From Eledone cirrhosa (lineage: Eukaryota): 64,000 bases of DNA. Positions 14,704 to 59,810 of the stretch are shown in pieces. The DNA is taken from NCBI GenBank assembly GCA_964016885.1, contig OZ024743.1:34286001-34350000 (forward strand), given 5' to 3'. Every line of letters starts with the position of its first letter. The stretch's first letter is position 1. A program made the translations under genes and the position numbers. Under the pieces are notes generated by a model that worked only from the letters and a program-made list of their open reading frames with translations, did not search any database and was not told where the DNA came from.

Positions 14704-16510
14704 GTTGGTGGCAAAGAAAGAGGCACTTACCTCTCTGCGTCCCGGGGTCTGGGCTGCTCAGTTTCCATAGGGCTGGTGGAGGGGTTGTTGGGTGGGTGGT
14801 GGTTTGTGGTGGTGTGGGGGTATTAGTGTGTGGTGGGGTTGGGGTGTTTGGAGTTGTGTGGGTGTTTGAGGAGGGGAGGGGAAAAGCTTTCAGGAGGACG
14901 CGGTTGAGTGGCCTGGTGCAGGGTGTCCCCATGTCCTCAGGGTAAATGTTTTTCAAAGTTTTGAAAATGTCAAGTGGGACTTTCACCATTTTCAGGTTAG
15001 GGAGTCCCATTGCCGTTACGAAATTCGGCCCTTCGGTTTGTATCAAAGGGTTGTTTTCTATTTTTTCAGTTAGGTTTTTATTGTTTTTGTTTATGTATGT
15101 GTAGAGTTTTTGTGTTGTTGTGTTTGTTTTTGCTTGTTGTTCTTAAGTGAGTTTGCGTTTTATTGTCTGTGTTGTGTTGTCAGGTGGGGTTATTTTTGTT
15201 TGTGTGGTGTGTGTACGTTTTTTTCTTTTCACTTTTTGGAAGGGAGCCCCCTCGTCTTCCGACGATATGAGCTCCTCTTCCGTATTGGAGGGGAGGGGTA
15301 TATCTCCGGGTTGTGTATGAACTGCGTGTGTTTTTGTATTTGTGTTCTGTGGGGTGGGGCTGGGTGGGACCGTGTTTTTGGTTGTTTTCTTGAGCTGTTG
15401 TTGATGTTGTTGTTGTTGTTGTGGTGGTGGTGGTGGTGGAGGTGTTGTTGGTTTTTGTTGTCGTTGTGGTGGTGATGGTATTGTATTTTGTTGTTTTTGT
15501 GATGGTGGTGCTGGTTGTTTTTGTTGTTGTTGTGGTGTTTGTAGCAGTGGTTTTTTTGTTGTTAGTAGAGGGCAGGCTGTCCTCTGGTGACCTCTGCCAG
15601 CGCAGTGGTAACATGAGGGTCTCCTGCCTTCCACTGTGATATTTATGAAGGTTCGCCCATCCAGTAGGACTCGGTCGGGTATTCCGGAGATTCTCTCAGG
15701 TGTCATCTGTAAGAGAACCTCCAGACTTTTCCCCCCGAACAGTCCACTGGTGGACTTCCCTGCTGAAATAAGTATCTCCTTTTCTAGGTCCGTAAATCCT
15801 GTTAGGACGGACCAGATGTTAATTTCTGGCGTTGGGCGCCACATTCTTATTCTTTGTGTTCTTCTTCCTTTATATGTGGGGAAGAAGGTGTATTGTGGTG
15901 ACACTATAGGTGCCACCGAATATTTTTGCGCCAGCATTTCGTCCTTCATTCGGACCATAATGCTGGCATACAGCTTTCCTCTTTGAATAAAGAGTATGTC
16001 CTTTTTAATGTCTTTCAGAACCAGCTCAATTTGACTTTCTGTCAATTGAGCTGGCTTTCTTGTTGCGTTGGTTATAGTCCTGTAGGTTACGGTATTCCTA
16101 TATAGCTGTTGACGCACTTCTTCTGGGGAGTTGATCCTAAAAGAACCATCCTCGCCAAAAGATACGTATTTTCTAGCATCTAGCAAATTTTGCTTAGCGT
16201 TCGTGATATCTATTGGCTTGGACTCGATAGCTTTCCTGACCGTTTGGGCAAAAGAAATTTTGTTGTCTTTGTTTGTTGTTGTAATGTTGTTGGTTTCATT
16301 ATTTGTGGTGTTATTTTTTTCTTCAAAATTAAGTTTATCATTTGAATTAATATTCTTTTTTTTTTCATTGGAGAGGAGGGGCTGTTCAACAGTTTGAACT
16401 GTTGTTCCCTCTTTCCCGCTTATTTTTTTGGTAGGCGTGGCGTTCGCTTCCAATATGGCGATATCGTTTTCGACGATATCGATAAACATTTCTGAATTAA
16501 ATATTTTCAC
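14639..16510 (-). pseudogene. Tx1 ORF1 (gag-like CCHC zinc-knuckle protein) with one in-frame TAA at 15143-15145
   Basis: CYHCAGRGHQRTAC = CX2CX4HX4C; Q/P/T-rich tail; ORFs 15143-16510 and 14639-15046 are in the same frame with an open linker after the stop. Confidence 0.8.
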
Positions 16511-16670
16511 CCCAAAAGGGGTGAAAATATATTTACCCTACGTCTACAGTCCCAGACTAGGGGTTAGCGTCAATAATAAAAAACAATTCAAATAATTCAC
16601 TCACAAATACAAATATTCCAGGTAAAAATTACAAATCGCAGAGCCGATATGAAAGACGTCTACTATCCTC

Positions 16671-18470
16671 AGAGAGACAGACAGACAGGCATATAGTTAG
16701 ACCGACAGACAGGCAGATAGTTAGACCGACAGACAGGCAGATAGTTAGACCGACAGACAGGCATATAGTTAGACCGACAGACAGGCAGATAGTTAGACCG
16801 ACAGACAGGCAGATAGTTAGACCGACAGACAGGCATATAGTTAGACCGACAGACAGGCAGATAGTTAGACCGACCGACAGGCAGATAGTTAGACCGACAG
16901 ACAGGCAGATAGTTAGACCGACCGACAGGCAGATAGTTAGACCGACAGACAGGCAGATAGTTAGACCGACAGACAGGCAGATAGTTAGACCGACAGACAG
17001 GCAGATAGTTAGACCGACAGACAGGCAGATAGTTAGACCGACAGACAGGCAGATAGTTAGACCGACAGACAGGCAGATAGTTAGACCGACCGACAGGCAG
17101 ATAGTTAGACCGACAGACAGGCAGATAGTTAGACCGACAGACAGGCAGATAGTTAGACCGACCGACAGGCAGATAGTTAGACCGACAGACAGGCAGATAG
17201 TTAGACCGACAGACAGGCAGATAGTTAGACCGACAGACAGGCAGATAGTTAGACCGACAGACAGGCAGATAGTTAGACAGACAGATAGACAGATAGTTAG
17301 ACCGACAGACAGGCAGATAGTTAGACAGACAGATAGACAGATAGTTAGACCGACAGACAGGCATATAGTTAGACAGACAGATAGACAGATAGTTAGACCG
17401 ACAGACAGGCAGATAGTTAGACCGACAGACAGGCAGATAGTTAGACCGACCGACAGGCAGATAGTTAGACCGACAGACAGGCAGATAGTTAGACCGACAG
17501 ACAGGCAGATAGTTAGACCGACAGACAGGCAGATAGTTAGACCGACAGACAGGCATATAGTTAGACAGACAGATAGACAGATAGTTAGACCGACAGACAG
17601 GCAGATAGTTAGACCGACAGACAGGCAGATAGTTAGACCGACCGACAGGCAGATAGTTAGACCGACAGACAGGCAGATAGTTAGACCGACCGACAGGCAG
17701 ATAGTTAGACCGACAGACAGGCAGATAGTTAGACCGACAGACAGGCAGATAGTTAGACCGACAGACAGGCAGATAGTTAGACCGACAGACAGGCAGATAG
17801 TTAGACCGACAGACAGACAGATAGTTAGACCGACAGACAGGCAGATAGTTAGACCGACAGACAGGCAGATAGTTAGACCGACCGACAGGCAGATAGTTAG
17901 ACCGACAGACAGGCAGATAGTTAGACCGACAGACAGGCAGATAGTTAGACCGACCGACAGGCAGATAGTTAGACCGACAGACAGGCAGATAGTTAGACCG
18001 ACAGACAGGCAGATAGTTAGACCGACAGACAGGCAGATAGTTAGACCGACAGACAGGCAGATAGTTAGACCGACAGACAGGCAGATAGTTAGACCGACAG
18101 ACAGATAGACAGATAGTTAGACCGACAGACAGGCAGATAGTTAGACCGACAGACAGGCAGATAGTTAGACCGACATACAGACAGATAGTTAGACCGACAG
18201 ACAGGCAGATAGTTAGACCGACAGACAGGCAGATAGTTAGACCGACCGACAGGCAGATAGTTAGACCGACAGACAGATAGACAGATAGTTAGACCGACAG
18301 ACAGGCAGATAGTTAGACCGACAGACAGGCAGATAGTTAGACCGACATACAGACAGATAGTTAGACCGACAGACAGGCAGATAGTTAGACCGACAGACAG
18401 GCAGATAGTTAGACCGACAGACAGATAGACAGATAGTTAGACCGACAGACAACAGACAGACAGATAGACA
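16671..18470. repeat. 24-bp minisatellite (about 74 units)
   Basis: Unit AGTTAGACCGACAGACAGGCAGAT, highly homogeneous. Confidence 0.97.
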
Positions 18471-18974
18471 GAACGTGGTAAGCGTATCTGCGTGTGTGTG
18501 CGCATGTGTGTGTCAGCGTGTACGTGCGTACATATCCGTGTACGTGTGTATACATACGCATATGTACGTATTTATACATTTACATTTAATGGTACATGTG
18601 CCTGTCGAATGCTCAGCTACCTGCATGTTAATTTCACCAGCAGGTTGTTCAAACAATTGATGAAAGTCCAATACGATACGTAGGATATTGGTTGATTTTC
18701 TCGAAAGCTATTTACAAAATCTACAGCAAATATACTTCAATGGGATGGTCATGGCACAAATGTCTTGGACTAAACGAGGGAGCAACTTGCTAGAAATAAC
18801 AGCTATATCTCTCTAACATCACACGATTAAAAGAACATAATGGTCAATGTTTTCTATGAACAACTGGACAGTGTTTCTCAAGGTGGGATGTGAGCGTTAG
18901 GGCTAGGCCTCCTCCTGAGGAGTGTGAAAGCAACATTAAGGATTGATAAAGTACTGAAAAATTACTATGATTAA

Positions 18975-27043: not shown

Positions 27044-29934
27044 GGGTAGATAACAACAATGAGCCAGTGGAAAGAGACAGGAGTAATTATGAGTGACATA
27101 GAAACAACCATGAGGCTGTTGGTGGAAATAGAAATAGAAACAACACAACTAACAATAACAATAGCACTAGTACACATAAAGCAGCAGCCTGGAACTCTAC
27201 GTTTTATAATCCCTCCGATAAATCGTTCGAACTGCGACGAGTCCACGCCACGACTTTACCATTTAACAAACGCACGCAATTGCCGTCGCAGGTCGATGAA
27301 CAAACAGAAGCACAATTTAGTATAGCTAGATCCGAACTTAGAAATATTATAGAACAGTATAGCAAGAAGCATAATAGAATGGAGGCCCAGCAACTGGGAG
27401 AAAAATCTGTAAATGGCTTGCGTAAGCACATGCAGCGCTCACGTAATAGAGAGATAGCATGCTTTCCAACAGACAAGTCTGGCAGAATGTCGGTTGGCAG
27501 CCTGCCAAACTACATCCAGGCAATGCAACCCCACATCACTAACACAAGAGAGGTAACACCACAGGAGCATGAGGATAGAGAAAAAGCCCTCAATGCCCAT
27601 ATGGTGATGTGGACGAATATAATGCAGCCCAACAAAAGAACTGCCAACAACTTCCAGGCCTGGAACAATGACGTGCCGGCGTTGTATGGGCTTCGAAAAG
27701 ACCATAAAACGGGCTGTGACCCTGTCGCGGGACCACCAACACGGCCAGTCTGTGGAGCTAACATTGCTAGTAACTACAGACTGTCCTACTTCCTCTTCCT
27801 GATCATACGCCCCATCATTGAAATGTCCCCAGATGTATGTGACAGCACGGAGGACCTCCTCAGCAGAATCGGCGTGAGTAACCGAACTAGGGACCTAACA
27901 AACTGCATAATAGGCAGTATGGATGTTGTGTCCCTGTATCCATCTATTGACGTGGATTTTGCTGTGGAGAAATGCGTAGAAATGATCAGTGAGAGCAAGG
28001 TTGAGTTCCGTGGGATTGATACCAGTGAGCTGGGACTCCTACTTAAGCTTACCTATAGTAATAATTACCTAGACACATATGACCTTAGCAACCTGTGCCC
28101 TACAAGACCAGCAAGAGGCAGACCACCTACCATTACCTCAATGGCCAAGAAAACCCACACAGATAGATGGAACGGGTGGACCAGAGCCATACGGACACCC
28201 GAAAACCACGATGAACTGAAGAAAATGATTGCACATGCGGTAGGGGCCAGCATAAAACTAACCCTTAAGGAACATATGTTCAAGTTTAATGGATAACATA
28301 TGCCCAAGGGGAAGGAGCAGCCATTGGTGTTAGCATTGCAGGCGACATAGCTAACTTATTCATGGTAGGGTGGGACAGTAGACTTAAACTTAAACTTAAA
28401 GAACAATTAGAAGACCCCTTAACCCTGATAATGTACTCCCGCTACGTTGATGATATAAACATCGTAGTTAAGACACCCCCACTAGAGAACAGTCAGGAAC
28501 TAGAGAAAAACACAATGGAAAGCATCCAGCAAATAGCAAACTCCATCCACCAGAGCATTAGAGTTACTATAGACTACCCAAGTAAACACCCCAACCATCG
28601 ATTACCTGTACTAGACACAGAGCTCTGGTTAGATACCATTAACAACAAAAAACAAATCCTCCATTCCCATTATGCCAAACCCATGACTTCCAAACATCTG
28701 ATCCACCGAAACTCGGCCGTTTCGGACCATACCAAAATCAACATACTGATTGCGGATTTGGTACGGGTGATGAGAAATGTGTCCCGCATGTGCAACCCCG
28801 AAGAACTAGAGAGACACATACAACACTTCATCCACCGTATGCAGTTCTCTGGCTACAATCAGAGAGATAAAATCAGAGTGTATAGAGGAGCCAGAACCAA
28901 ATGGGAAAAAATGGTAAATAATGTCACAAATGGGACCTGCCCCTTGTATAGGAGCAAATTTTGGAATAGAATAGAAAGAACTAGGAATAAGGTTAATAGA
29001 ATAAACTCATGGTATGATAGCAATAAATACCAGAGTGTAATGTTCATCGATACAACCCCTAGAGGTGAATTAGCTTACAAATTTAGAAGGGCCCTAGATA
29101 AATATAAACTCAATATTAAGATAGTAGAAAGACCAGGTACCTCCGTAAAAACACTTATTAGCAAGACATACCCTTTTCAAAGACCCTCATGTATAGATAA
29201 GAAATGTATAACCTCTAAAATAAGCCCCCATATTAACTGTAAAACTAGAAATGTAGTGTATAGCATAAGATGTACTGAAGGACAATGTAGATATAAGAAT
29301 ATAGTGTACATAAGTGAGATAGCTCGTAGTATAGGGGAACGGATAAATGAACACTGGCGAGACCTTCAAGATAGTAAAGAATCATCTGTACTCTACCAAC
29401 ATGCTAAAATAGAACACAAGGGGAAATTAGAGAACATAGAAATAAAAATAGAATCTACACACAGAAAAGACGCAATGTTTAAACAAATCACAGAGGCAAT
29501 AAACATAAACGAACTCCAACCAAAATTAAATAGAAAACATGAATGAAACAGCAACATCACAACTTACAATTAAGGATAAAATGAAAACACACACTTACAT
29601 AGAACAAACAACCAACCAGTAACATGTAAATAAACAAATAAATGAACATAAACACACACAGACACCCGGATGTGGCACATGCGCAAACTAAGCAAACAAA
29701 ACACACAAAAACAAGATGGCGTAGGACAGTACAAAGGAGAGGCACAAAAACAAAGAAAAGAATCCTAGTCACTGAAGAGGTCACAGAATGTGTGATGAAA
29801 GAACTTTGACAATATATAAACAATCATCTTGTTGTGGAACCAACCAACCAACCGGAAATTTATAAATTCCTAAATTTATAAATTTATTATAATAAATTGA
29901 AGTGAAAGCAACTGGTGCGTGTGTCTCCCAAAAT

Positions 29935-31225: not shown

Positions 31226-32322
31226 TGATAATGGTGGTTATATTATATAGATACCGAATGATAACGATGGCGATGAAGAATATGTGTTATTGTTGCTGTT
31301 TAGACTCGGGTCAGCCCTGATGGAGCAATAACTTGTATGATGAAAGGGGTTTCAGTCGGGACCTTGATAACCCAATTCTTTTTTTCAGACATCATTTAAC
31401 TTGGGCTATGTTATCCTAGATGTCCTTCTTTTAAGACTATGTTTTTTTTTATTTCACGGAAATTTGGCTGCTATTTCTAATCGAGCTCTCTTGTTGGTTC
31501 AATGATTATATCAATGGGAATGATAATGGTCATAATGATAAGACCGGGGCTGATGATGATGCCGGCGATGACGATGATACTGGTGGTGGTGGTGGTGGTG
31601 GGTTTGGTGGTGATGTTGGTGATGATGATGAGGAGAAAACTGGTGGAGATGGTGACGAAGGTGGGGCAATTTCCGTTAATCTTCTGGATTAACTTGTGAT
31701 TAACTTTAGTTAAATCCTTCACTCAAGTTACAATTGGTTTATCTCAAGCCTACTGCTGGTCCAGCAACAGGCTAATTAAACTGTATATAATCCACACTAA
31801 TTCCATCCATCCATCCAGTCAACCAGCCAGCCAGACAGACAGACAGCCTATTAACACAGCCATCTACAACAATATCGCCTCCACCGCTACCATCAATAAC
31901 ACTACCACAACAACAACTAATATAACTTCACAATGACTACTAATGCACTTACCACCAACAACAAAATCACCCCTGCCAACATCTTCATCACTACGAATGC
32001 CACCACCACTAACACCAGCACCACCACCAATACACTAACGCCACTATGACCACCACCAACAACACTACTACCAATACCTGCCCCAACACTAATGCCAATC
32101 ATTACCACCAGCAGCAATGTATACACAACTACTGCCGTAACTAACATCATTAAAACTAGCACTACAACCATCACCATCATCAAAATGATCACTACTACTA
32201 TTACAACTATTACTACAATAACTACTATGAACCTCCATCTTCTCCACCCCTGGTACTACTACTCCCACCATCGCAAAGGTATTATCGACTCTACTAATAT
32301 TGATTTCTAATATAGGCAAAAG

Positions 32323-35300
32323 TTGGTGAATTAGCAGAGTAGTTAGAACGTCGGATAGAATGGCAGAGTGGTTAGAACGTCGGATAGAATGGCAGAGTGG
32401 TTAGAACGTCAGATAGAATGGCAGAGTAGTTAGAACGTCGGATAGAATGGCAGAGTGGTTAGAACGTCGGATAGAATGGCAGAGTGGTTAGAACGGCTGA
32501 TAGAATGGCAGAGTGGTTAGAACGTCAGATAGAATGGCAGAGTGGTTAGAACGTCAGATAGAATGGCAGAGAAGTTAGAACGTCGGATAGAATGGCAGAG
32601 TGGTTAGAACGTCAGATAGAATGGCAGAGTGGTTAGAACGGCTGATAGAATGGCAGAGTGGTTAGAACGGCTGATAGAATGGCAGAGTGGTTAGAACGGC
32701 TGATAGAATGGCAGAGTGGTTAGAACGTCGGATAGAATGGCAGAGTGGTTAGAACGGCTGATAGAATGGCAGAGTGGTTAGAACGGCTGATAGAATGGCA
32801 GAGTGGTTAGAACGTCGGATAGAATGGCAGAGTGGTTAGAACATCAGATAGAATGGCAGAGTGGTTAGAACGTCGGATAGAATGGCAGAGTGGTTAGAAC
32901 ATCGGATAGAATGGCAGAGTGGTTAGAACGGCTGATAGAATGGCAGAGTGGTTAGAACGTCAGATAGAATGGCAGAGTGGTTAGAACGTCAGATAGAATG
33001 GCAGAGAAGTTAGAACGGCTGATAGAATGGCAGAGTGGTTAGAACGTCAGATAGAATGGCAGAGTGGTTAGAACGTCGGATAGAATGGCAGAGTCGTTAG
33101 AACATCAGATAGAATGGCAGAGTGGTTAGAACGGCTGATAGAATGGCAGAGTCGTTAGAACGTCGGATAGAATGGCAGAGTCGTTAGAACGTCGGATAGA
33201 ATGGCAGAGTGGTTAGAACGTCGAATAGAATGGCAGAGTGGTTAGAACGGCTGATAGAATGGCAGAGTGGTTAGAACGTCGGATAGAATGGCAGAGTGGT
33301 TAGAACGTCGGATAGAATGGCAGAGTGGTTAGAACGTCGGATAGAATGGCAGAGTGGTTAGAACATCAGATAGAATGGCAGAGTGGTTAGAACGTCGGAT
33401 AGAATGGCAGAGTGGTTAGAACGTCGGATAGAATGGCAGAGTGGTTAGAACGTCGGATAGAATGGCAGAGTGGTTAGAACGTCGGATAGAATGGCAGAGT
33501 GGTTAGAACATCAGATAGAATGGCAGAGTGGTTAGAACGGCTGATAGAATGGCAGAGTGGTTAGAACGGCTGATAGAATGGCAGAGTCGTTAGAACGTCG
33601 GATAGAATGGCAGAGTCGTTAGAACGTCGGATAGAATGGCAGAGTGGTTAGAACGTCGGATAGAATGGCAGAGTCGTTAGAACGTCGGATAGAATGGCAG
33701 AGTGGTTAGAACGTCGGATAGAATGGCAGAGTGGTTAGAACGGCTGATAGAATGGCAGAGTGGTTAGAACGTCGGATAGAATGGCAGAGTGGTTAGAACG
33801 TCGGATAGAATGGCAGAGTGGTTAGAACGTCGGATAGAATGGCAGAGTGGTTAGAACATCAGATAGAATGGCAGAGTGGTTAGAACGTCGGATAGAATGG
33901 CAGAGTGGTTAGAACGTCGGATAGAATGGCAGAGTGGTTAGAACGTCGGATAGAATGGCAGAGTGGTTAGAACGTCGGATAGAATGGCAGAGTGGTTAGA
34001 ACATCAGATAGAATGGCAGAGTGGTTAGAACGGCTGATAGAATGGCAGAGTGGTTAGAACGGCTGATAGAATGGCAGAGTCGTTAGAACGTGGGATAGAA
34101 TGGCAGAGTCGTTAGAACGTCGGATAGAATGGCAGAGTCGTTAGAACGTCGGATAGAATGGCAGAGTGGTTAGAACGGCTGATAGAATGGCAGAGTGGTT
34201 AGAACGGCTGATAGAATGGCAGAGTGGTTAGAACGGCTGATAGAATGGCAGAGTGGTTAGAACGGCTGATAGAATGGCAGAGTGGTTAGAACGGCTGATA
34301 GAATGTCAGAGTCGTTAGAACGGCTGATAGAATGACAGAGTCGTTAGAACGTCGGATAGAATGGCAGAGTGGTTAGAACATCAGATAGAATGGCAGAGTG
34401 GTTAGAACGTCAGATAGAATGGCAGAGTGGTTAGAACGTCAGATAGAATGGCAGAGTGGTTAGAACGGCTGATAGAATGGCAGAGTGGTTAGAACGGCTG
34501 ATAGAATGTCAGAGTCGTTAGAACGGCTGATAGAATGGCAGAGTCGTTAGAACGTCGGATAGAATGGCAGAGTGGTTAGAACGTCAGATAGAATGGCAGA
34601 GTGGTTAGAACGTCAGATAGAATGGCAGAGTGGTTAGAACGGCTGATAGAATGGCAGAGTGGTTAGAACGGCTGATAGAATGGCAGAGTGGTTAGAACGG
34701 CTGATAGAATGTCAGAGTCGTTAGAACGGCTGATAGAATGACAGAGTCGTTAGAACGTCGGATAGAATGGCAGAGTGGTTAGAACATCAGATAGAATGGC
34801 AGAGTGGTTAGAACGTCAGATAGAATGGCAGAGTGGTTAGAACGGCTGATAGAATGGCAGAGTGGTTAGAACGTCGGATAGAATGGCAGAGTGGTTAGAA
34901 CGTCAGATAGAATGGCAGAGTGGTTAGAACGTCGGATAGAATGGCAGAGTCGTTAGAACGTCAGATAGAATGGCAGAGTGGTTAGAACATCAGATAGAAT
35001 GGCAGAGTGGTTAGAACGTCAGATAGAATGGCAGAGTGGTTAGAACGGCTGATAGAATGGCAGAGTGGTTAGAACGTCGGATAGAATGGCAGAGTGGTTA
35101 GAACGTCAGATAGAATGGCAGAGTGGTTAGAACGGCTGATAGAATGGCAGAGTGGTTAGAACGGCTGATAGAATGTCAGAGTCGTTAGAACGGCTGATAG
35201 AATGGCAGAGTCGTTAGAACGTCGGATAGAATGGCAGAGTGGTTAGAACGTCGGATAGAATGGCAGAGTGGTTAGAACATCAGATAGAATGGCAGAGTGG

Positions 35301-38300
35301 TTAGAACGGCTGATAGAATGGCAGAGTGGTTAGAACGGCTGATAGAATGGCAGAGTGGTTAGAACGGCTGATAGAATGGCAGAGTGGTTAGAACGTCAGA
35401 TAGAATGGCAGAGTGGTTAGAACGTTGGATAGAATGGCAGAGTCGTTAGAACATCAGATAGAATGGCAGAGTGGTTAGAACGGCTGATAGAATGGCAGAG
35501 TGGTTAGAACGTCGGATAGAATGGCAGAGTCGTTAGAACGTCGGATAGAATGGCAGAGTGGTTAGAACGTCGGATAGAATGTCAGAGTCGTTAGAACGGC
35601 TGATAGAATGGCAGAGTGGTTAGAACGTCGGATAGAATGGCAGAGTCGTTAGAACGTCGGATAGAATGGCAGAGTGGTTAGAACGTCGAATAGAATGGCA
35701 GAGTGGTTAGAACGGCTGATAGAATGGCAGAGTGGTTAGAACGTCGGATAGAATGGCAGAGTGGTTAGAACGTCGGATAGAATGGCAGAGTGGTTAGAAC
35801 GTCGGATAGAATGGCAGAGTGGTTAGAACATCAGATAGAATGGCAGAGTGGTTAGAACGTCGGATAGAATGGCAGAGTGGTTAGAACGTCGGATAGAATG
35901 GCAGAGTGGTTAGAACGTCGGATAGAATGGCAGAGTGGTTAGAACATCAGATAGAATGGCAGAGTGGTTAGAACGGCTGATAGAATGGCAGAGTGGTTAG
36001 AACGGCTGATAGAATGGCAGAGTGGTTAGAACGGCTGATAGAATGGCAGAGTCGTTAGAACGTCGGATAGAATGGCAGAGTCGTTAGAACGTCGGATAGA
36101 ATGGCAGAGTCGTTAGAACGTCGGATAGAATGGCAGAGTGGTTAGAACGGCTGATAGAATGGCAGAGTGGTTAGAATGGCTGATAGAATGGCAGAGTGGT
36201 TAGAACGGCTGATAGAATGGCAGGGTGGTTAGAACGGCTGATAGAATGGCAGAGTGGTTAGAACGGCTGATAGAATGTCAGAGTCGTTAGAACGGCTGAT
36301 AGAATGACAGAGTCGTTAGAACGTCGGATAGAATGGCAGAGTGGTTAGAACATCAGATAGAATGGCAGAGTGGTTAGAACGTCAGATAGAATGGCAGAGT
36401 GGTTAGAACGTCAGATAGAATGGCAGAGTGGTTAGAACGGCTGATAGAATGGCAGAGTGGTTAGAACGGCTGAGAGAATGTCAGAGTCGTTAGAACGGCT
36501 GATAGAATGGCAGAGTCGTTAGAACGTCGGATAGAATGGCAGAGTGGTTAGAACGTCAGATAGAATGGCAGAGTGGTTAGAACGTCAGATAGAATGGCAG
36601 AGTGGTTAGAACGGCTGATAGAATGGCAGAGTGGTTAGAACGGCTGATAGAATGGCAGAGTGGTTAGAACGGCTGATAGAATGTCAGAGTCGTTAGAACG
36701 GCTGATAGAATGACAGAGTCGTTAGAACGTCGGATAGAATGGCAGAGTGGTTAGAACATCAGATAGAATGGCAGAGTGGTTAGAACGTCAGATAGAATGG
36801 CAGAGTGGTTAGAACGGCTGATAGAATGGCAGAGTGGTTAGAACGTCGGATAGAATGGCAGAGTGGTTAGAACGTCAGATAGAATGGCAGAGTGGTTAGA
36901 ACGTCGGATAGAATGGCAGAGTCGTTAGAACGTCAGATAGAATGGCAGAGTGGTTAGAACATCAGATAGAATGGCAGAGTGGTTAGAACGTCAGATAGAA
37001 TGGCAGAGTGGTTAGAACGGCTGATAGAATGGCAGAGTGGTTAGAACGTCGGATAGAATGGCAGAGTGGTTAGAACGTCAGATAGAATGGCAGAGTGGTT
37101 AGAACGGCTGATAGAATGGCAGAGTGGTTAGAACGGCTGATAGAATGTCAGAGTCGTTAGAACGGCTGATAGAATGGCAGAGTCGTTAGAACGTCGGATA
37201 GAATGGCAGAGTGGTTAGAACGTCGGATAGAATGGCAGAGTGGTTAGAACATCAGATAGAATGGCAGAGTGGTTAGAACGGCTGATAGAATGGCAGAGTG
37301 GTTAGAACGGCTGATAGAATGGCAGAGTGGTTAGAACGGCTGATAGAATGGCAGAGTGGTTAGAACGTCAGATAGAATGGCAGAGTGGTTAGAACGTTGG
37401 ATAGAATGGCAGAGTCGTTAGAACATCAGATCGAATGGCAGAGTGGTTAGAACGGCTGATAGAATGGCAGAGTGGTTAGAACGTCGGATAGAATGGCAGA
37501 GTCGTTAGAACGTCGGATAGAATGGCAGAGTGGTTAGAACGTCGGATAGAATGTCAGAGTCGTTAGAACGGCTGATAGAATGGCAGAGTGGTTAGAACGT
37601 CGGATAGAATGGCAGAGTCGTTAGAACGTCGGATAGAATGGCAGAGTGGTTAGAACGTCGAATAGAATGGCAGAGTGGTTAGAACGGCTGATAGAATGGC
37701 AGAGTGGTTAGAACGTCGGATAGAATGGCAGAGTGGTTAGAACGTCGGATAGAATGGCAGAGTGGTTAGAACGTCGGATAGAATGGCAGAGTGGTTAGAA
37801 CATCAGATAGAATGGCAGAGTGGTTAGAACGTCGGATAGAATGGCAGAGTGGTTAGAACGTCGGATAGAATGGCAGAGTGGTTAGAACGTCGGATAGAAT
37901 GGCAGAGTGGTTAGAACGTCGGATAGAATGGCAGAGTGGTTAGAACATCAGATAGAATGGCAGAGTGGTTAGAACGGCTGATAGAATGGCAGAGTGGTTA
38001 GAACGGCTGATAGAATGGCAGAGTGGTTAGAACGGCTGATAGAATGGCAGAGTCGTTAGAACGTCGGATAGAATGGCAGAGTCGTTAGAACGTCGGATAG
38101 AATGGCAGAGTCGTTAGAACGTCGGATAGAATGGCAGAGTGGTTAGAACGGCTGATAGAATGGCAGAGTGGTTAGAATGGCTGATAGAATGGCAGAGTGG
38201 TTAGAACGGCTGATAGAATGGCAGGGTGGTTAGAACGGCTGATAGAATGGCAGAGTGGTTAGAACGGCTGATAGAATGTCAGAGTCGTTAGAACGGCTGA

Positions 38301-41300
38301 TAGAATGACAGAGTCGTTAGAACGTCGGATAGAATGGCAGAGTGGTTAGAACATCAGATAGAATGGCAGAGTGGTTAGAACGTCAGATAGAATGGCAGAG
38401 TGGTTAGAACGTCAGATAGAATGGCAGAGTGGTTAGAACGGCTGATAGAATGGCAGAGTGGTTAGAACGGCTGAGAGAATGTCAGAGTCGTTAGAACGGC
38501 TGATAGAATGGCAGAGTCGTTAGAACGTCGGATAGAATGGCAGAGTGGTTAGAACGTCAGATAGAATGGCAGAGTGGTTAGAACGTCAGATAGAATGGCA
38601 GAGTGGTTAGAACGGCTGATAGAATGGCAGAGTGGTTAGAACGGCTGATAGAATGGCAGAGTGGTTAGAACGGCTGATAGAATGTCAGAGTCGTTAGAAC
38701 GGCTGATAGAATGACAGAGTCGTTAGAACGTCGGATAGAATGGCAGAGTGGTTAGAACGTCGGATAGAATGGCAGAGTGGTTAGAACGTCGGATAGAATG
38801 GCAGAGTGGTTAGAACGTCGGATAGAATGGCAGAGTGGTTAGAACATCAGATAGAATGGCAGAGTGGTTAGAACGGCTGATAGAATGGCAGAGTGGTTAG
38901 AACGGCTGATAGAATGGCAGAGTCGTTAGAACGTCGGATAGAATGGCAGAGTCGTTAGAACGTCGGATAGAATGGCAGAGTCGTTAGAACGTCGGATAGA
39001 ATGGCAGAGTGGTTAGAACGGCTGATAGAATGGCAGAGTGGTTAGAACGGCTGATAGAATGGCAGAGTGGTTAGAACGGCTGATAGAATGGCAGAGTGGT
39101 TAGAACGGCTGATAGAATGGCAGAGTGGTTAGAACGGCTGATAGAATGTCAGAGTCGTTAGAACGGCTGATAGAATGACAGAGTCGTTAGAACGTCGGAT
39201 AGAATGGCAGAGTGGTTAGAACATCAGATAGAATGGCAGAGTGGTTAGAACGTCAGATAGAATGGCAGAGTGGTTAGAACGTCAGATAGAATGGCAGAGT
39301 GGTTAGAACGGCTGATAGAATGGCAGAGTGGTTAGAACGGCTGATAGAATGTCAGAGTCGTTAGAACGGCTGATAGAATGGCAGAGTCGTTAGAACGTCG
39401 GATAGAATGGCAGAGTGGTTAGAACGTCAGATAGAATGGCAGAGTGGTTAGAACGTCAGATAGAATGGCAGAGTGGTTAGAACGGCTGATAGAATGGCAG
39501 AGTGGTTAGAACGGCTGATAGAATGGCAGAGTGGTTAGAACGGCTGATAGAATGTCAGAGTCGTTAGAACGGCTGATAGAATGACAGAGTCGTTAGAACG
39601 TCGGATAGAATGGCAGAGTGGTTAGAACATCAGATAGAATGGCAGAGTGGTTAGAACGTCAGATAGAATGGCAGAGTGGTTAGAACGGCTGATAGAATGG
39701 CAGAGTGGTTAGAACGTCGGATAGAATGGCAGAGTGGTTAGAACGTCAGATAGAATGGCAGAGTGGTTAGAACGTCGGATAGAATGGCAGAGTCGTTAGA
39801 ACGTCAGATAGAATGGCAGAGTGGTTAGAACATCAGATAGAATGGCAGAGTGGTTAGAACGTCAGATAGAATGGCAGAGTGGTTAGAACGGCTGATAGAA
39901 TGGCAGAGTGGTTAGAACGTCGGATAGAATGGCAGAGTGGTTAGAACGTCAGATAGAATGGCAGAGTGGTTAGAACGGCTGATAGAATGGCAGAGTGGTT
40001 AGAACGGCTGATAGAATGTCAGAGTCGTTAGAACGGCTGATAGAATGGCAGAGTCGTTAGAACGTCGGATAGAATGGCAGAGTGGTTAGAACGTCGGATA
40101 GAATGGCAGAGTGGTTAGAACATCAGATAGAATGGCAGAGTGGTTAGAACGGCTGATAGAATGGCAGAGTGGTTAGAACGGCTGATAGAATGGCAGAGTG
40201 GTTAGAACGGCTGATAGAATAGCAGAGTGGTTAGAACGGCTGATAGAATGGCAGAGTGGTTAGAACGTCAGATAGAATGGCAGAGTGGTTAGAACGGCTG
40301 ATAGAATGGCAGAGTGGTTAGAACGTCGGATAGAATGGCAGAGTCGTTAGAACGTCAGATAGAATGGCAGAGTGGTTAGAACATCAGATAGAATGGCAGA
40401 GTGGTTAGAACGTCAGATAGAATGGCAGAGTGGTTAGAACGGCTGATAGAATGGCAGAGTGGTTAGAACGTCGGATAGAATGGCAGAGTGGTTAGAACGT
40501 CAGATAGAATGGCAGAGTGGTTAGAACGGCTGATAGAATGGCAGAGTGGTTAGAACGGCTGATAGAATGTCAGAGTCGTTAGAACGGCTGATAGAATGGC
40601 AGAGTCGTTAGAACGTCGGATAGAATGGCAGAGTGGTTAGAACGTCGGATAGAATGGCAGAGTGGTTAGAACATCAGATAGAATGGCAGAGTGGTTAGAA
40701 CGGCTGATAGAATGGCAGAGTGGTTAGAACGGCTGATAGAATGGCAGAGTGGTTAGAACGGCTGATAGAATGGCAGAGTGGTTAGAACGGCTGATAGAAT
40801 GGCAGAGTCGTTAGAACGGCTGATAGAATGGCAGAGTGGTTAGAACATCAGATAGAATGGCAGAGTGGTTAGAACGGCTGATAGAATGGCAGAGTGGTTA
40901 GAACGGCTGATAGAATGGCAGAGTGGTTAGAACGGCTGATAGAATGGCAGAGTCGTTAGAACGGCTGATAGAATGGCAGAGTGGTTAGAACATCAGATAG
41001 AATGGCAGAGTGGTTAGAACGTCCGATAGAATGGCAGAGTGGTTAGAACGTCGGATAGAATGGCAGAGTGGTTAGAACGTCGGATAGAATGGCAGAGTGG
41101 TTAGAACGTCGGATAGAATGGCAGAGTGGTTAGAACGTCGGATAGAATGGCAGAGTGGTTAGAACGTCAGATAGAATGTCAGAGTCGTTAGAACATCAGA
41201 TAGAATGGCAGAGTCGTTAGAACATCAGATAGAATGGCAGAGTGGTTAGAACGTCGGATAGAATGGCAGAGTGGTTAGAACATCAGATAGAATGGCAGAG

Positions 41301-43914
41301 TGGTTAGAACGTCGGATAGAATGGCAGAGTGGTTAGAACGTCGGATAGAATGGCAGAGTGGTTAGAACGTCGGATAGAATGGCAGAGTGGTTAGAACGTC
41401 AGATAGAATGGCAGAGTGGTTAGAACGTCGGATAGAATGGCAGAGTGGTTAGAACGTCAGATAGAATGACAGAGTGGTTAGAACGTCAGATAGAATGGCA
41501 GAGTGGTTAGAACGGCTGATAGAATGGCAGAGTGGTTAGAACGGCTGATAGAATGGCAGAGTGGTTAGAACGGCTGATAGAATGTCAGAGTCGTTAGAAC
41601 GGCTGATAGAATGACAGAGTCGTTAGAACGTCGGATAGAATGGCAGAGTGGTTAGAACATCAGATAGAATGGCAGAGTGGTTAGAACGTCAGATAGAATG
41701 GCAGAGTGGTTAGAACGGCTGATAGAATGGCAGAGTGGTTAGAACGTCGGATAGAATGGCAGAGTGGTTAGAACGTCAGATAGAATGGCAGAGTGGTTAG
41801 AACGTCGGATAGAATGGCAGAGTCGTTAGAACGTCAGATAGAATGGCAGAGTGGTTAGAACATCAGATAGAATGGCAGAGTGGTTAGAACGTCAGATAGA
41901 ATGGCAGAGTGGTTAGAACGGCTGATAGAATGGCAGAGTGGTTAGAACGGCTGATAGAATGGCAGAGTGGTTAGAACGGCTGATAGAATGTCAGAGTCGT
42001 TAGAACGGCTGATAGAATGACAGAGTCGTTAGAACGTCGGATAGAATGGCAGAGTGGTTAGAACATCAGATAGAATGGCAGAGTGGTTAGAACGTCAGAT
42101 AGAATGGCAGAGTGGTTAGAACGGCTGATAGAATGGCAGAGTGGTTAGAACGTCGGATAGAATGGCAGAGTGGTTAGAACGTCAGATAGAATGGCAGAGT
42201 GGTTAGAACGTCGGATAGAATGGCAGAGTCGTTAGAACGTCAGATAGAATGGCAGAGTGGTTAGAACATCAGATAGAATGGCAGAGTGGTTAGAACGTCA
42301 GATAGAATGGCAGAGTGGTTAGAACGGCTGATAGAATGGCAGAGTGGTTAGAACGTCGGATAGAATGGCAGAGTGGTTAGAACGTCAGATAGAATGGCAG
42401 AGTGGTTAGAACGGCTGATAGAATGGCAGAGTGGTTAGAACGGCTGATAGAATGTCAGAGTCGTTAGAACGGCTGATAGAATGGCAGAGTCGTTAGAACG
42501 TCGGATAGAATGGCAGAGTGGTTAGAACGTCGGATAGAATGGCAGAGTGGTTAGAACATCAGATAGAATGGCAGAGTGGTTAGAACGGCTGATAGAATGG
42601 CAGAGTGGTTAGAACGGCTGATAGAATGGCAGAGTGGTTAGAACGGCTGATAGAATGGCAGAGTGGTTAGAACGGCTGATAGAATGGCAGAGTCGTTAGA
42701 ACGGCTGATAGAATGGCAGAGTGGTTAGAACATCAGATAGAATGGCAGAGTGGTGAGAACGGCTGATAGAATGGCAGAGTGGTTAGAACGGCTGATAGAA
42801 TGGCAGAGTGGTTAGAACGGCTGATAGAATGGCAGAGTCGTTAGAACGGCTGATAGAATGGCAGAGTGGTTAGAACATCAGATAGAATGGCAGAGTGGTT
42901 AGAACGTCCGATAGAATGGCAGAGTGGTTAGAACGTCGGATAGAATGGCAGAGTGGTTAGAACGTCGGATAGAATGGCAGAGTTGTTAGAACGTCGGATA
43001 GAATGGCAGAGTGGTTAGAACGTCGGATAGAATGGCAGAGTGGTTAGAACGTCAGATAGAATGTCAGAGTCGTTAGAACATCAGATAGAATGGCAGAGTC
43101 GTTAGAACATCAGATAGAATGGCAGAGTGGTTAGAACGTCGGATAGAATGGCAGAGTGGTTAGAACATCAGATAGAATGGCAGAGTGGTTAGAACGTCGG
43201 ATAGAATGGCAGAGTGGTTAGAACGTCGGATAGAATGGCAGAGTGGTTAGAACGTCGGATAGAATGGCAGAGTGGTTAGAACGTCAGATAGAATGGCAGA
43301 GTGGTTAGAACGTCGGATAGAATGGCAGAGTGGTTAGAACGTCGGATAGAATGGCAGAGTGGTTAGAACGTCGGATAGAATGGCAGAGTGGTTAGAACGT
43401 CGGATTGAATGGCAGAGTCGTTAAAACGTCAGATAGAATGGCAGAGTGGTTAGAACGTCAGATAGAATGGCAGAGTGGTTAGAACGTCGGATAGAATGGC
43501 AGAGTCGTTAGAACGTCGGATAGAATGGCAGAGTGGTTAGAACGTCGGATAGAATGGCAGAGTGGTTAGAACGTCGGATAGAATGGCAGAGTCGTTAGAA
43601 CGTCGGATAGAATGCTTTATGGTATTAGTTCCAGCTCTCTGCTCTCTGAGTTCAAATCCCCCCGAGGTCAACTTTGCCTTTCATCCTTTCGACCTCGATA
43701 AAAAAACGTACCAGTCAACTACTGGGGTGAATTCTTTCTCTATATTTCTTTCTCGTTTCCTCTCTCTCACTTTCTATCCTTTTCTGGACGAAATCTGCTG
43801 TACTCAGGCCTGGAGAGGGATGGGCTCCGCCAGGCTTAAAAAGAAAAACGCCCAAGTATGTCAATACGGCGTCCCTAAGACTCTATCAGAAGGTACGGCG
43901 CCATACATACATAC
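32323..43914 (+). mobile_element. Single SINE insertion with internally amplified head, flanked by a 14-bp TSD
   Basis: TSD AATATAGGCAAAAG at 32309-32322 and 43915-43928; starts TTGGTGAATTAGCAGAGTAG; after the array come the B box, core and a (CATA)n tail. Confidence 0.85.
32332..43614 (+). repeat. 29-bp satellite, about 389 units, with higher-order structure
   Basis: Unit TGGCAGAGTGGTTAGAACGTCGGATAGAA with few recurring variants (GTCG/GTCA/GGCT/ATCA; GTGG/GTCG; GGC/GTC/GAC). Confidence 0.98.
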
Positions 43915-44290
43915 AATATAGGCAAAAGGCGAGCAGATTGTTTTGGGGTGGGGAGATCAAAGTTGATTAAATCAACTCCAGTACTTGACTGGCATCTTAT
44001 TTTATCGGATCGGGAAGATTGAAATAAAAACTTAATTTTGGTGGGATTTGAACTCAGAATTTAAAGAGCCAGGAGAAATATCACAAAATATTTTAACCGG
44101 CGCTCTACCAATTTTGCCAATCGACCATGTTTCTCGCCTCTACTAATATTTGTTTCTAGTATAGGCACAAAGCCAGCAATTTGAGGCGGATGGGAAATTC
44201 GATTAAATCCACTCCAGTGCATTTCTGGTACTTTATTTTATCGACCCCGTAAGGATGAAAGGCAAAGTTAACCTCGGCGGGATTTGAACT
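43915..44290 (-). mobile_element. Two minus-strand SINEs; the first is the host split by the 11.6 kb insertion
   Basis: Tail TTTCTAATATAGGCAAAAG at 32304-32322 continues at 43929 into the SINE body; second copy at 44150-44290. Confidence 0.8.
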
Positions 44291-44324
44291 CTCTAACAGC
44301 ATTAATAACAGCACACACTGCCAA

Positions 44325-45413
44325 AAGCTCCACCACCACCACCACCACCACCATCATCATTAGCGTCAACACTAACACTACCACAATCTACAAATACTCT
44401 CACCAAAACCACTACCATCAGCATCACCTCCACCATCACAACCACCAGCACCACTACCATCGTTACTTTCACCACAATAACCGCAACCACTACCATTACC
44501 ATCAACCCCATCACCACTATAAGCACCAACTCTACCACTCCCCCCCCCCCCACACACACACACCAATAAACACCACCACCACCGCCAGCACCAATAACAA
44601 CACCGCCATAAGCCCCAACGTCTAAACTAGGATCAATGTCACTACCATCACCGCTCGTTACTATCAACGCTACAACCACCACCATGAACATCACCACCAC
44701 CACCACCACCACCACAACCACCACTACGACCACGACCACCAATACCACAACTACCATCACCACCATCACCACCACAACCAACAGTACAACCACCACCATC
44801 ACCAGCACCACCACCACCACAAATACCATCACCACCATTACTACTACCACCAACACCACAACAAAACCACCAATACCACAACCACCACCACCAATACCAC
44901 CACCACCACCATTACCACTACCACAATCAATAACAACAACAACAACAACAATGTTCGTGACTCTTCCCGCAGTCACCACCACCACCACCATCACCACCAC
45001 CACCACAACAACAACAACCACCACAACAACCACCAACACCAACACCACAACAACCACCACCACCACCACCACAACAACAACAACCACCACAACAACCACC
45101 AACACCAACACCACAACAACCACCACCACCACCACATCAACAACAACAACCACCACAACAACCACCAACACCAACACCACAACAACCACCACCACCACCA
45201 CATCAACAACCACCACAACAACCACCAACACCAACACCACAACAACCACCACCACCACCACAACAACAACCACAACAACCACCAACACCAACACCACAAC
45301 AACCACGACCATCACCACCACAACAACTACCACCATCACCACCACCATCACCACCACCAACACCACAACAACCACCAACACCACCACCACCACAACCACT
45401 ATCACCACCACCC
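44325..45413. repeat. (ACC)/(AAC) low-complexity tract with ~57-60 bp local periodicity
   Basis: CAC/AAC runs; source of the poly-T/poly-V ORFs. Confidence 0.9.
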
Positions 45414-49318: not shown

Positions 49319-51007
49319 GCTCCGTTGAAATGTGTTCACCTTTAATTTATTGATGGGATCAGTGGCGTTATTCGTTATCTAAAAACAAAAACAGGGCCGT
49401 TTTTCGACCAGACCCTTTATGAAAAAGAAAACAAGAAGAAAAAGAAAAAGAAAAAGAAAAAGAAAAAGAAGAAGTCGGTTTCGGGTTAAATAACAACATA
49501 GGGGTGCTTCAACGAGCTCTCTGCACGACTTAAACTAAATCTAACATCGCCAAAATAGAACTGGAAGAAAAAGATTTTAAAAAGTAAATCAACACAGAAA
49601 ACTAAGAGATTATTCTAATGTAAGGCATATGTCCATCACATGCGATATCTCAGCGAGACAACATGCAACGCGTGAAAAAATTAAATCAACACGAAAAATT
49701 ATGAAGCGAATCACTAAATACAGACATAAAAATTCTTTAAGTACGAAAATCATTGCGTATGCAATTTAATGTTTATGCATCATACGCTCGAAAACATGTG
49801 ACACAAACGAAGCTAATCAAACGCAAAATGAACTTCTAAACACAAACAAAACAAAAGAGAACGAATAATCTCGAAACATGTCTTCAAACATATTACTATC
49901 TGCATTATAAAAAAAAAAAGCAATCAACTGTACCCGGTGATAAATCTAAAATAGAGGTTTCAAAGTGTAAATTTTATGTAATAACTCTACGAACTTTGTC
50001 TCATAACATGGGGAGCATAGACAGCATCCTTTCAAAAGGTTAACATTGTAAACACAGGCCTATCTCTGGACGTCTCTCGGCGTCCAAAGGAAAAGTAAAA
50101 TTAAAAGAGAATGTTGAAAAAATGATGTCTAAATTGAGGTGTCACATGCATTCTACACAGCAACACTGTATCCCAAAATAAACGAAAGCTTTATAAAAGA
50201 GATATATAAGCTATGAGAAAAAAGAACAAAGAATCAAGGAAAAGTATTGCACCAGAAACACCGGCAGACGTACGAAGATTTATTGGACGGAAGGCCAAAG
50301 AACCCAAAATTGAAATAAAATACACACTGAATATAAACCAATTAACCAAATATAACAACGTGTTATCAACGAAAATAGTGCAACAAAACTTATCTTTCCT
50401 TAAAAGCCACAATAATACAAATATACAATAAATGATGATCTAAAACAAAGTGAAATTATTATATAGCTGTCCACGCAAGAAATAAATCACACCCATAGAC
50501 ATAAAAACAGAATGTCAAAGACCATAGAAACAGGCAATGAAATACACAGGCGCAACAAAAATATAACATCCAACCCACACATAACAATAAAAGAAATATA
50601 AACCCACACTACGACAGAGCCACTAAAATTGAAAATGAGAATGTCTGATTGAAGAAATATAGAAAACAGAAGAGAACATTTCAAAATCAGTTAGCAAATC
50701 TCAACGTGACCATCTTCATAGTTTCAGAAAAAAAATGAACACCTTCTCAATGAAAGAACAAATAAATATATCAGAGTCCTGCAAGAATGTATGCTCATGA
50801 CAACAGATTGCTTGAATATCGATAGACTGCGTGATTTGATTGATTCAGTAGCAAAAGTGATATCAAAGGAAATTTGTAAGGATCTAACATGCAAAAGAAA
50901 ATAACAAAAAAATATAACATAAGTAAAATAGAAGACACCTTGGAAGCAAAAACAAAACCTCATGCCGCATAAATCGTTATGAAAAGTATGAAAGCTTCTT
51001 CCAAGAA

Positions 51008-51330
51008 AATAATTGTTTCTACTTTTGGCACAAGGTCAGCAATTACCCAGTACTAGTACTTTATTTTATCGACCCCATAAGGATGAAAGGCAAAGTTAAC
51101 TTCGGCGGGATTTGAACTCAGAATGACAAGGACCGTAACTCTATGCGTCAAAGAAAATAATTGTTTCTACTATTGGCACAAGGCCAGCAATTACCCAGTA
51201 CTGGTACTTTATTTTATCGACCCCGTAAGGATGAAAGGCAAAGTTAACCTCGGCTGGATTTTAACTCAGAATGGCAACGGCCGTAACTCAATGCGTCAAA
51301 GCATGGCGTCCGACCCTCTACCGATACTGA
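51008..51330 (-). mobile_element. SINE with ~143 bp tandem duplication of its 3' part
   Basis: CAAGAAAATAATTGTTTCTACT...CCGTAACTC(T/A)ATGCGTCAAAG appears twice. Confidence 0.85.
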
Positions 51331-55379: not shown

Positions 55380-55423
55380 TTAATACAATTAGATTGGTTG
55401 TTACAGCTATAACTTTGTTATTA

Positions 55424-56080
55424 TATCGGTAGAGGGTCGGGCGCCATGCTTTGCAGCAAAGTGTTACGGCCCTTTATGGTCTGAGTTCAAATCCCGCCGA
55501 GGTTAACTTTGCCTTTCATCCTTACGGAGTCGATAAAATAAGGTACCAGTAATGTACTGGGTAATTGCTGGCCTTGTGCCAAAAGTAGAAACAATTATTA
55601 TTATATAGATTCGGCCCTTGTGGCCAATAAATTAAATCATGATTATATAGATAGGGTGGTGGATTGGCAGTATCGGTAGAGAGTCGGACGCCATGCTTTG
55701 CAGCAAGGAGTTACGGCCCTTTATGATCTGAGTTCAAATCCCGCCGAGGTTAACTTTGCCTTTCATCCTTATGGGGTCGATAAAATAAAGTACCAGTAAT
55801 AGCGTGGGATAATTTCTGGCCTTGTGCCAAAGGTAGAAACAATTATTATATAGATCGGTTAAGGCGGTGAATTGGCAGTATTGCTAGAGCGTCAGATACC
55901 ATGCTTTTCAACGTAGAGTTACGACCTTTTACGATCTGATTTCAAATCCCGCCGAGGTTAGCTTTGCCGTACATCCTTACGAGATCGATAAAATAATGTA
56001 CCAGTAACGCACTAGGGTTGATTTAATCGACTTTCTCCTCCCCTAAAATTGCTAGCCTTGTGCCTATAGTAGAAATCATT
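55424..56080 (+). mobile_element. Three head-to-tail SINE copies
   Basis: Copies at about 55424-55600, 55655-55850 and 55862-56080, each followed by TATAGAT or TATAGAG. Confidence 0.85.
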
Positions 56081-56975
56081 TTTTATAGAGATCGGTGGAT
56101 TGACATTTCATGTTGTTCCTTCTACCTGGAATTGCGACCGATGGATAGTATTAGCAATTGGAAAGACCAACGGAAACATTGTTTCCTCGGTCCGATTTGA
56201 CCAAAGTCGATCGATTAATATAAAATTGACCATTGAAGGGCCACTCAGACTTTATGTCTTCTGTTATTCTCTGTCTGTTCTAGAGTTTTACACGCGTTCA
56301 CTATGTGGGGGACACTTTCTGTATTAACTCCAAACAGCACTTCACAGTTTCATCAAGATGATACACCCCTTTAGTAATCAACTTAGTACACAAAGTTTAG
56401 TCTTAGGCTTAGATAAGAAATGTTTCAGTTTCCCTTTTTAAATCTCTGCGGGAGGGGGGAATCCAAAGGTCTTTCGGTCGTTAATTAATTTGTCATTCAA
56501 ATTGGCCATGCAATGTCTTTCCAACTATCGCTTCTCTTTTTTTTCCAGCCTAGATTCATCTCCCAACCTCTCCTTTATTCTCCATCTTCTGCCTTCTTAG
56601 GACCAATACTGCTGAGGCATACTGTACAAGTCTTTTGTTACTATTTATAAGATGTTTATTAATGGCTCGACTCTCATTCACGATACATTCCTCTCTATAT
56701 ATTTCATGTACAGCCGATTTACATTTAATTTTGGATATAACACCTCATGCATAAATATCATTCTTCTTATTTATCTCATCAAACTTAGCCTTAGTACATT
56801 GCGAATCCCAGCACGGTACTGTATCACAAACACAGCAAATTTCCAGCAAGCAGTTTTGACTTAAGGGGAAGTTTTAGCCTGTGAAAATATATATTCTTTA
56901 CATTGTCTCTCATTGGTCCATACAGTGTCTCTCAAATCTCTTGGATTTGCACCCGTCATCTCTTGGTGCATTTAG

Positions 56976-58969: not shown

Positions 58970-58989
58970 GGTATAAGATAGTATAAGAT

Positions 58990-59810
58990 AGAGGTGTTCA
59001 GGTATTGGTTGAAGTGTTCACTAGTTGATGGAAGTGTTCAGGTATTGGTTGAAGTGTTCACTCGTTGATGGAAGTGTTCAGGGATTGGTTGAAGTGTTCA
59101 CTCGTTGATGGAAGTGTTCAGGGATTGGTTAAAGTGTTCACTCGTTGATGGAAGTGTTCAGGTATTAGTTGAAGTGTTCACTAGTTGATGGAATTGTTCA
59201 GGGATTGGTTAAAGTGTTCACTCGTTGATGGAATTGTTCAGGGATTAGTTGAAGTGTTCACTAGTTGATGGAAGTGTTCAGGGATTGGTTAAAGTGTTCA
59301 CTCGTTGATGGAAGTGTTCAGGTATTAGTTGAAGTGTTCACTAGTTGATGGAAGTGTTCAGGGATTGGTTAAAGTGTTCACTCGTTGATGGAAGTGTTCA
59401 GGGATTGGTTGAAATGTTCACTCGTTGATGGAAGTGTTCAGGTATTAGTTGAAGTGTTCACTCGTTGATGGAAGTGTTCAGGTATTGGTTGAAGCGTTCA
59501 CTCGTTGATGGAAGTGTTCAGGTATTAGTTGAAGTGTTCACTAGTTGATGGAATTGTTCAGGGATTGGTTAAAGTGTTCACTTGTTGATGGAAGTGTTCA
59601 GGGATTGGTTAAAGTGTTCACTCGTTGATGGAAGTGTTCAGGTATTGGTGAAAGTGTTCACTAACTGATGGAAATGTTCAGGTATTGGTTCACGTGTTCA
59701 CTAGTTGATGTGAGTGTTCAGAGATTGGTTCACGTGTTCACTGGTTGTTGGGAATGTTCATGGGTTGGTAGAAGTGTTCACTCGTTGATGGAACTGTTCA
59801 GGTGTTGGTT
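58990..59810. repeat. 40-bp minisatellite (2x20-bp subunits, about 20 units)
   Basis: GAAGTGTTCAGGTATTGGTT + GAAGTGTTCACTCGTTGATG; degenerates toward the 3' end. Confidence 0.95.

Follow-up and report, generated by a model that had tools for sequence, protein, structure and literature searches.

How can a short retroposon come to hold, between its 5′ end and the rest of its body, hundreds of tandem copies of a piece of its own promoter? The window, by which we mean the whole stretch of 64,000 nucleotides analysed here, raises this question at positions 32334–43614 of its plus strand, where TRF reports an array of period 29 with 389.0 copies, 94% matches and 0% indels, the length being that of the assembly. 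The unit consists of an A box and the following 18 nt of a tRNA-like head, and by its size the array is a minisatellite. Set in a fixed 29-bp register from 32354, it splits into 388 whole units of 28 types with zero indels; the mean identity over pairs of units is 93.3%, 11 units are singletons, and the two changes of the unit ending in GGCT are each present in 143 of the 388. The strict A-box motif TRGCNNAGYGG, taken over from a preliminary description of this DNA, is found in 300 of these units, and inside the array there is no exact B-box match on either strand and no T4 terminator on the plus strand. The central picture of that description—a roughly 389-fold array of 29-bp units containing an A box, lying between the 5′ end of a SINE and the remainder of the same SINE, with one B box near 43648—was confirmed, both ends of the array being seen and the B box giving one match. 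The copy number itself rests on the assembly, because no listed piece spans the stretch: 20 of the 24 listed sequencing runs contain part of it, none half or more, and no RNA run is among those listed. In exact-pattern searches, neither the unit junction nor the SINE core had a match in viral contigs, prokaryote genomes or metagenomes. Among the amplified unit variants in 32354–43605, G>A at CpG sites is common. A coding role was considered and rejected, as the reading frames across the junction are repeat read-through.

Collapsed to a single unit, the element is 340 bp long, and all its parts lie on the plus strand. Its 5′ leader (32323–32333) precedes the first A box and aligns both with the leader of the copy at 55938 and with the consensus of the loose ends that single-unit heads show. 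At the other end of the array, the second-last A box (43555–43565) is a strict match 83 nt upstream of the B box, and the last (43584–43594) has one mismatch and lies 54 nt upstream; the copy closest to the B box is therefore the mismatched TGGCAGAGTCG, with a strict copy the next one out. The single B box at 43648/43649–43659, set off from the array by a spacer, and the A boxes were assigned with the consensus motifs. There follow a core common to the window's abundant SINE family (43660–43730), a 3′ module that is absent elsewhere in the window and multicopy in public runs (43731–43901), and a (CATA)n tail, read as (CATA)3C (43902–43914). A run of four Ts is a termination signal for Pol III, and the sole such run of the element, at 43780–43783 within the 3′ module, may halt transcription ahead of the tail. 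With its A and B boxes, short length, lack of coding sequence, dispersed copies, simple-repeat tail and target site duplication (TSD), the element has the features of a tRNA-derived SINE. ARAGORN reported no tRNA genes, and Rfam gave no tRNA match and three hits at chance level; RNA folding of the last unit together with the body gave nothing out of the ordinary (z = −0.40).

The family to which the element belongs could be followed both within the window and outside it. A scan of the 64 kb anchored on the B box recovered 18 SINE copies, and in 10 of the 17 others an A-box-like word lies 63–65 nt upstream of the anchor, the distance in the last unit of the array being 64; the last A box thus occupies the position of the single A box in those copies. 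Of the 24 public runs, four were compared with 43548–44340 at 85% likeness: X1 and X2, from one sample of organism A, X4 from organism B, and X23, which holds raw RAD reads. Organism A may or may not be the species of the window (share 0.38, with one 139-nt contig identical to the flank). The family is large, with 125,838 contigs of X1 matched to the stretch. Exactly at 43584, 764 contigs of X1 and 786 of X2 depart from our sequence, and the leader that they carry there, ending in GGCGGCGAAT, matches the leader at 32323. Judging from these contigs, a single A box after an ordinary leader is the family's usual 5′ head. The check proposed in the preliminary description, to collapse the array to one unit and align it with the family, came out in favour of a SINE origin, since six window copies align colinearly with the last unit and body and the public single-unit heads align with the 5′ end; the size of the parent element, given there as about 330 bp, has to be revised to 340 bp. 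Words of the SINE core had no match to CORE, V or Meta domains in the bivalve Meta/V/CORE supplement or in a second supplement, the search covering material other than files 5–8 of PMC9115989. In the 3′ part of the element, public contigs of X1 and X2 show a joint that returns from 43841 to 43810 and brings in 11 additional letters, and depth drops sharply past 43841; the segment 43810–43841 is likely a second tandem-prone segment and a module border of the family.

The arrival of the element is recorded in its flanks. A 14-mer occurs twice in the window, at 32309–32322 and 43915–43928, with zero copies on the minus strand; the match stops at both edges and has a chance expectation of about 7e-6 in a junction space of 30 × 30, the final G possibly being the SINE's first base instead. 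Outside the 14-mers lie the parts of an older, minus-strand SINE: on the left, its distal tail (32290–32308, left border approximate; blastn 85% over 40 nt to 44131–44170) and on the right, its head, B box (~44043–44055), core and proximal tail (43929–44125). Set side by side, the flanks join up like five intact SINE tails of the window. Both 14-mers contain GGCAAAA, whereas all five of the intact tails compared have GGCACAA; as the two copies share a change that is absent from the five tails, the duplication post-dates a mutation of the host, and the common derived base identifies the pair as a TSD rather than two separate tails. The 340-bp SINE was inserted into the tail of an older minus-strand SINE with duplication of the target, just as had been proposed from the 14-mer bracketing the element and splitting its host. 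The host SINE is itself the downstream member of two SINEs arranged head to tail (43929–44300, minus strand), and further tandem SINE pairs and a triple are found in the window at 51003–51301 and 55400–56090.

Body and array appear to differ in age. Over 43606–43914, at least 17 sites per ~300 bp set the SINE body apart from the X1 majority (17 of 21 among the rows listed, with 345 more beyond these), a divergence of at least ~6%, and the longest family contigs show 15–20 differences per ~120 nt from it. The array, on the other hand, contains letter-identical blocks of 44, 32, 31, 29 and 27 units, the longest 1,276 bp in size; in 30 shuffles of the unit order, the longest identical run was 8 units. 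The 44-unit block at 34094–35369 (plus strand) is identical to 38937–40212 and is part of a higher-order repeat of ~68 units, or ~2 kb, seen about three times, the copies of which carry a few private changes and gains or losses of units. Because the body has diverged while blocks of up to 1,276 bp remain identical, it is likely that the element was inserted long ago and that the array grew recently; we infer that the blocks were made by successive unequal exchanges or conversions after the insertion. The distance of the body from the majority could instead reflect membership of a young minor subfamily rather than age. The earlier proposal of an insertion followed by amplification of the A-box segment in place is supported, with the refinement that the present array was probably shaped by block duplications that are recent compared with the insertion.

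The explanation that we favour, and regard as probable, is that of a SINE-derived minisatellite, in which the 29-bp A-box segment expanded in place and at the DNA level, long after the insertion and most likely neutrally. First, a tRNA-type SINE would have retrotransposed into the tail of the older SINE and made the duplication, as expected from established SINE biology. The 29-bp segment would then have been doubled through slippage or unequal repair at a microhomology of 2–4 nt, either at this locus or already in the source copy; GAAT/TG does flank the segment on both sides. Finally, a few unit variants would have arisen, and unequal exchange or gene conversion would have multiplied them as blocks of 7 to ~70 units, the newest rounds leaving the identical blocks of 0.8–1.3 kb. 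Counting against the second step, the microhomology of this locus is shorter than the flanking repeats of 5–20 bp in the usual minisatellite model, as set out in the accessible part of PMC3389668. The product is most likely neutral DNA of variable length.

The array does not stand alone, however. A joint between units, reaching back 58 nt, is present in X1, X2, X4 and the RAD reads of X23, where it is supported by 13 reads with 8 starts and 58 nt on the short side, and X1 and X4 contain further diverged units with joints in that register. These joints indicate that tandem arrays in the same register occur elsewhere and in two organisms, seen as unit joints. Most of the outside unit depth carries C>T at 43558: the T makes up 79% of the depth in X1 and 59% in X4 and is found in 31 of 41 RAD reads but in none of the 388 units of the window, so the array here would have expanded independently of the form commonest outside. 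The summed X1 depth of the unit is 479k–594k against 247k for the SINE head (depths are not copy numbers), and the unit sequence is scarce in RAD reads though deeper than the head in the contig runs, a combination that fits long arrays distant from the cut sites. In the RAD reads, depth is ~50 over the second-last unit and ~1,200–2,400 over the last unit and head, which suggests that ~2–4% of the sampled heads continue into another unit, the reads coming from 8–19 start points and possibly very few loci. Among the listed pieces of the four runs compared, we found no junction-spanning piece and no empty allele. The idea of a one-off record of the birth of a satellite is not upheld by these data; this SINE family most likely has many arrays in the same register, ours among them, and since such arrays exist elsewhere, the first duplication perhaps did not take place at this locus.

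Whether a duplicated head could be inherited through RNA depends on the spacing of the promoter boxes. The gaps from A box to B box run 54, 83, 112, 141, 170 nt and so on, and the accessible part of PMC11724288 gives a natural A–B spacing in tRNA genes of 31–93 bp. As only the gaps of 54 and 83 nt fall within that range, no more than two A boxes, the last ones, could pair with the B box today, and a long ladder of start sites 29 nt apart, as imagined in the preliminary description, seems unlikely. With 11 kb between its first A box and the B box, the long form has, for the same reason of distance, probably never passed through a Pol III transcript; a form of two units could have done so.

This bears on the strongest competing explanation, in which the units were seeded by descent: a source SINE with two or a few units was transcribed from its upstream A box, at 83 nt from the B box, before retrotransposing, and the seeds expanded afterwards. 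Such seeding is compatible with growth in place and merely shifts the first duplication to a master copy. It would account for the one unit junction that organisms A and B have in common in their diverged tandem copies, for the RAD heads that run into a further unit and for the family leader retained by the element, and the 83-nt gap is within the natural range. The commonest outside form, with its T at 43558, is however not the ancestor of our array, a fixed microhomology would yield the same register repeatedly too, no duplicated head is seen in any of the window's 17 other SINE copies, and the RAD reads may stem from very few loci; on balance, we consider this explanation possible but unlikely. 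Equally tentative is a broader picture of an octopod SINE lineage whose own promoter holds the seed of a satellite: with the A-box head doubled and transcription still possible from the upstream box, retrotransposition would plant two-unit seeds, all in one register, throughout the genome, and these would grow into a multilocus 29-bp family shared between species. Our locus would be a complete, TSD-bounded specimen of this cycle.

Compared with expansion in place, it is very improbable that the A-box segment, shared with a pre-existing satellite, let a block of that satellite enter the SINE through gene conversion or ectopic recombination. The excess of unit over head depth in X1 (again with the caveat that depths are not copy numbers) and the rarity of the unit in RAD reads, as expected of long arrays distant from cut sites, would suit such an origin, but the commonest outside variant is missing from the array, the first and last units meet the leader and body without a scar, and the higher-order blocks are internal duplications of one another.

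A functional array, acting as a ladder of Pol III start sites or as a sink or boundary for TFIIIC, is less probable still. The strict A box in 300 of 388 units and the lack of plus-strand T4 in the array would suit such a role, and in yeast SNR6, where A and B boxes can be up to 202 bp apart around a positioned nucleosome, pseudo-A boxes have been suggested to sequester or guide TFIIIC (accessible part of PMC9136082). Against this, the locus has only one B box, and the affinity of TFIIIC is nanomolar for the B box and micromolar for the A box (accessible part of PMC11724288); in yeast, the longer transcript obtained with a partial second A box stayed <10%, and that box was no substitute for the genuine one, as far as the accessible account of that work goes. 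A B-box-like word on the minus strand of 300 units was examined as a possible promoter and rejected: it has one mismatch in its core and gives no exact match. A weaker form of the idea, limited to two boxes, stays alive because the nearest A box is mismatched and the second is strict. Finally, that the array is real but its length or its higher-order blocks are an assembly artefact is likewise hardly probable: long identical blocks are where assemblers err and no spanning long read was seen, but the blocks differ in private variants and in gains and losses of units, 11 units are singletons, and a TSD with a shared derived base is not a product of an assembler.

Duplicated segments inside retroposons are well known, the VNTR of SVA being one that is copied along with its element. 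Rodent B1, with an internal duplication of ~30 nt (cited in PMC10702118), resembles our element in the same way, a segment of similar size being duplicated inside a retroposon and copied with it. As far as the available descriptions go, the B1 and SVA duplications are family-wide and carried through RNA, whereas the family of our array is mostly single-unit and passage of the long array through Pol III transcription is implausible.

The closest parallels are sSat1–3, satellites built from segments of tRNA-derived SINEs and described across the genomes of 56 squamates (Vassetzky et al. 2023, PMC10702118). There, as here, a sub-segment of a tRNA-derived SINE is repeated in tandem and the end units run on into the SINE, and minor loci retain both SINE termini; sub-variants alternate, and the squamate satellites form multilocus families shared across species. 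Individual loci hold up to 320, ~950 and >1,200 units, with 94% unit similarity in the 320-unit locus. By the definition used for sSats, our array has a SINE sub-segment as its unit, at least four middle monomers (389) and both ends continuing into the SINE, and it is homogeneous, with 93.3% mean identity, 28 types and block repeats. Its unit of 29 nt, however, contains the A box alone, whereas squamate units are ~70–290 nt long and that of snakes holds box B; the range of 70–290 nt is an observed one, obtained in a search that required fragments of at least 20% of the SINE length. The main text of that study is without the terms 'box A', 'TSD', 'target site' and 'higher-order', and its Fig. 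S8B may show TSD-bounded loci; its authors were unsure of such satellites beyond squamates (PMC10702118). The reading in the preliminary description, of a satellite birth recorded with its origin intact, is weakened as a one-off, SINE-derived satellites that keep both SINE ends having already been described.

In humans, according to the accessible part of a survey by Ahmed and Liang (2012, PMC3389668), 23% of minisatellites are derived from transposable elements (TEs) and known models explain ~6% of these; some TE regions are minisatellite hotspots, and some repeats, such as LTR12, were spread by transposition. The human cases likewise have their start within a TE, Alu for instance, and grow through local duplication, but Alu-derived arrays average only ~2.3–2.4 units, compared with the 389 units and higher-order blocks of our array. 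In octopods, the tRNA-derived SINEs OR1 and OR2 are CORE-SINEs (accessible parts of PMC4824008 and PMC5804259) and, likened by description, share with our SINE a tRNA-type head, a conserved core and, for ours likely, an octopod host. Accessible sections of other work describe bivalve SINE tandems made of whole elements (PMC11481361) and, in a 2025 review, name SINEs as a source of satellites (PMC12692304). Our literature search found no report of an octopus SINE satellite or of tandem A boxes, a weak result as subscription journals and repeat databases were thinly covered. What is likely new in comparison with the known SINE satellites is the short unit with only an A box, the intact TSD, the higher-order blocks and the probable octopod host, and SINE-derived satellites would then likely extend from reptiles to cephalopods and to a unit with the A box alone. 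As it stands, the locus illustrates a known process with unusual clarity and adds no new biology.

Its value lies in what has been preserved. The start of minisatellites and satellites is still poorly explained, and here the order of events can be reconstructed because the starting sequence, the insertion scar, the parent family and the variant code of the units have all survived. A survey of the family could separate recurrent births from inherited seeds. The locus is also a natural test of the choice of A box by TFIIIC, with a strict box at 83 nt and a weaker one at 54 nt from the same B box.

The window contains other mobile and repetitive DNA. An L1/Tx1-like LINE lies at 11300–16537 on the minus strand, with an ORF1-like frame, matches to RVT_1 and zf-RVT, and ORF2 in frameshifted pieces. 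Its relatives comprise 19 matches, the named eukaryotes being Argonauta hians (61%) and Octopus sinensis (43%); the remainder are metagenome or unnamed entries, one of them a protein labelled as coming from a bacterial MAG. These two relatives make an octopod host likely. A search with ORF1 gave no hit. Related GACA-rich tandem arrays flank the LINE on both sides (10577–11071 and 16670–18472), one of them made of 73.5 copies of 24 bp, and the LINE was possibly inserted into, or targets, a GACA-rich repeat. At 27097–29546 on the plus strand there are two frames, of 399 and 418 aa, that overlap and on visual inspection resemble a Penelope-type reverse transcriptase with a GIY-YIG nuclease; neither had a Pfam match at E 0.001. 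A second minisatellite, at 58987–59810, has 20.6 copies of a 40-bp unit with 89% matches.
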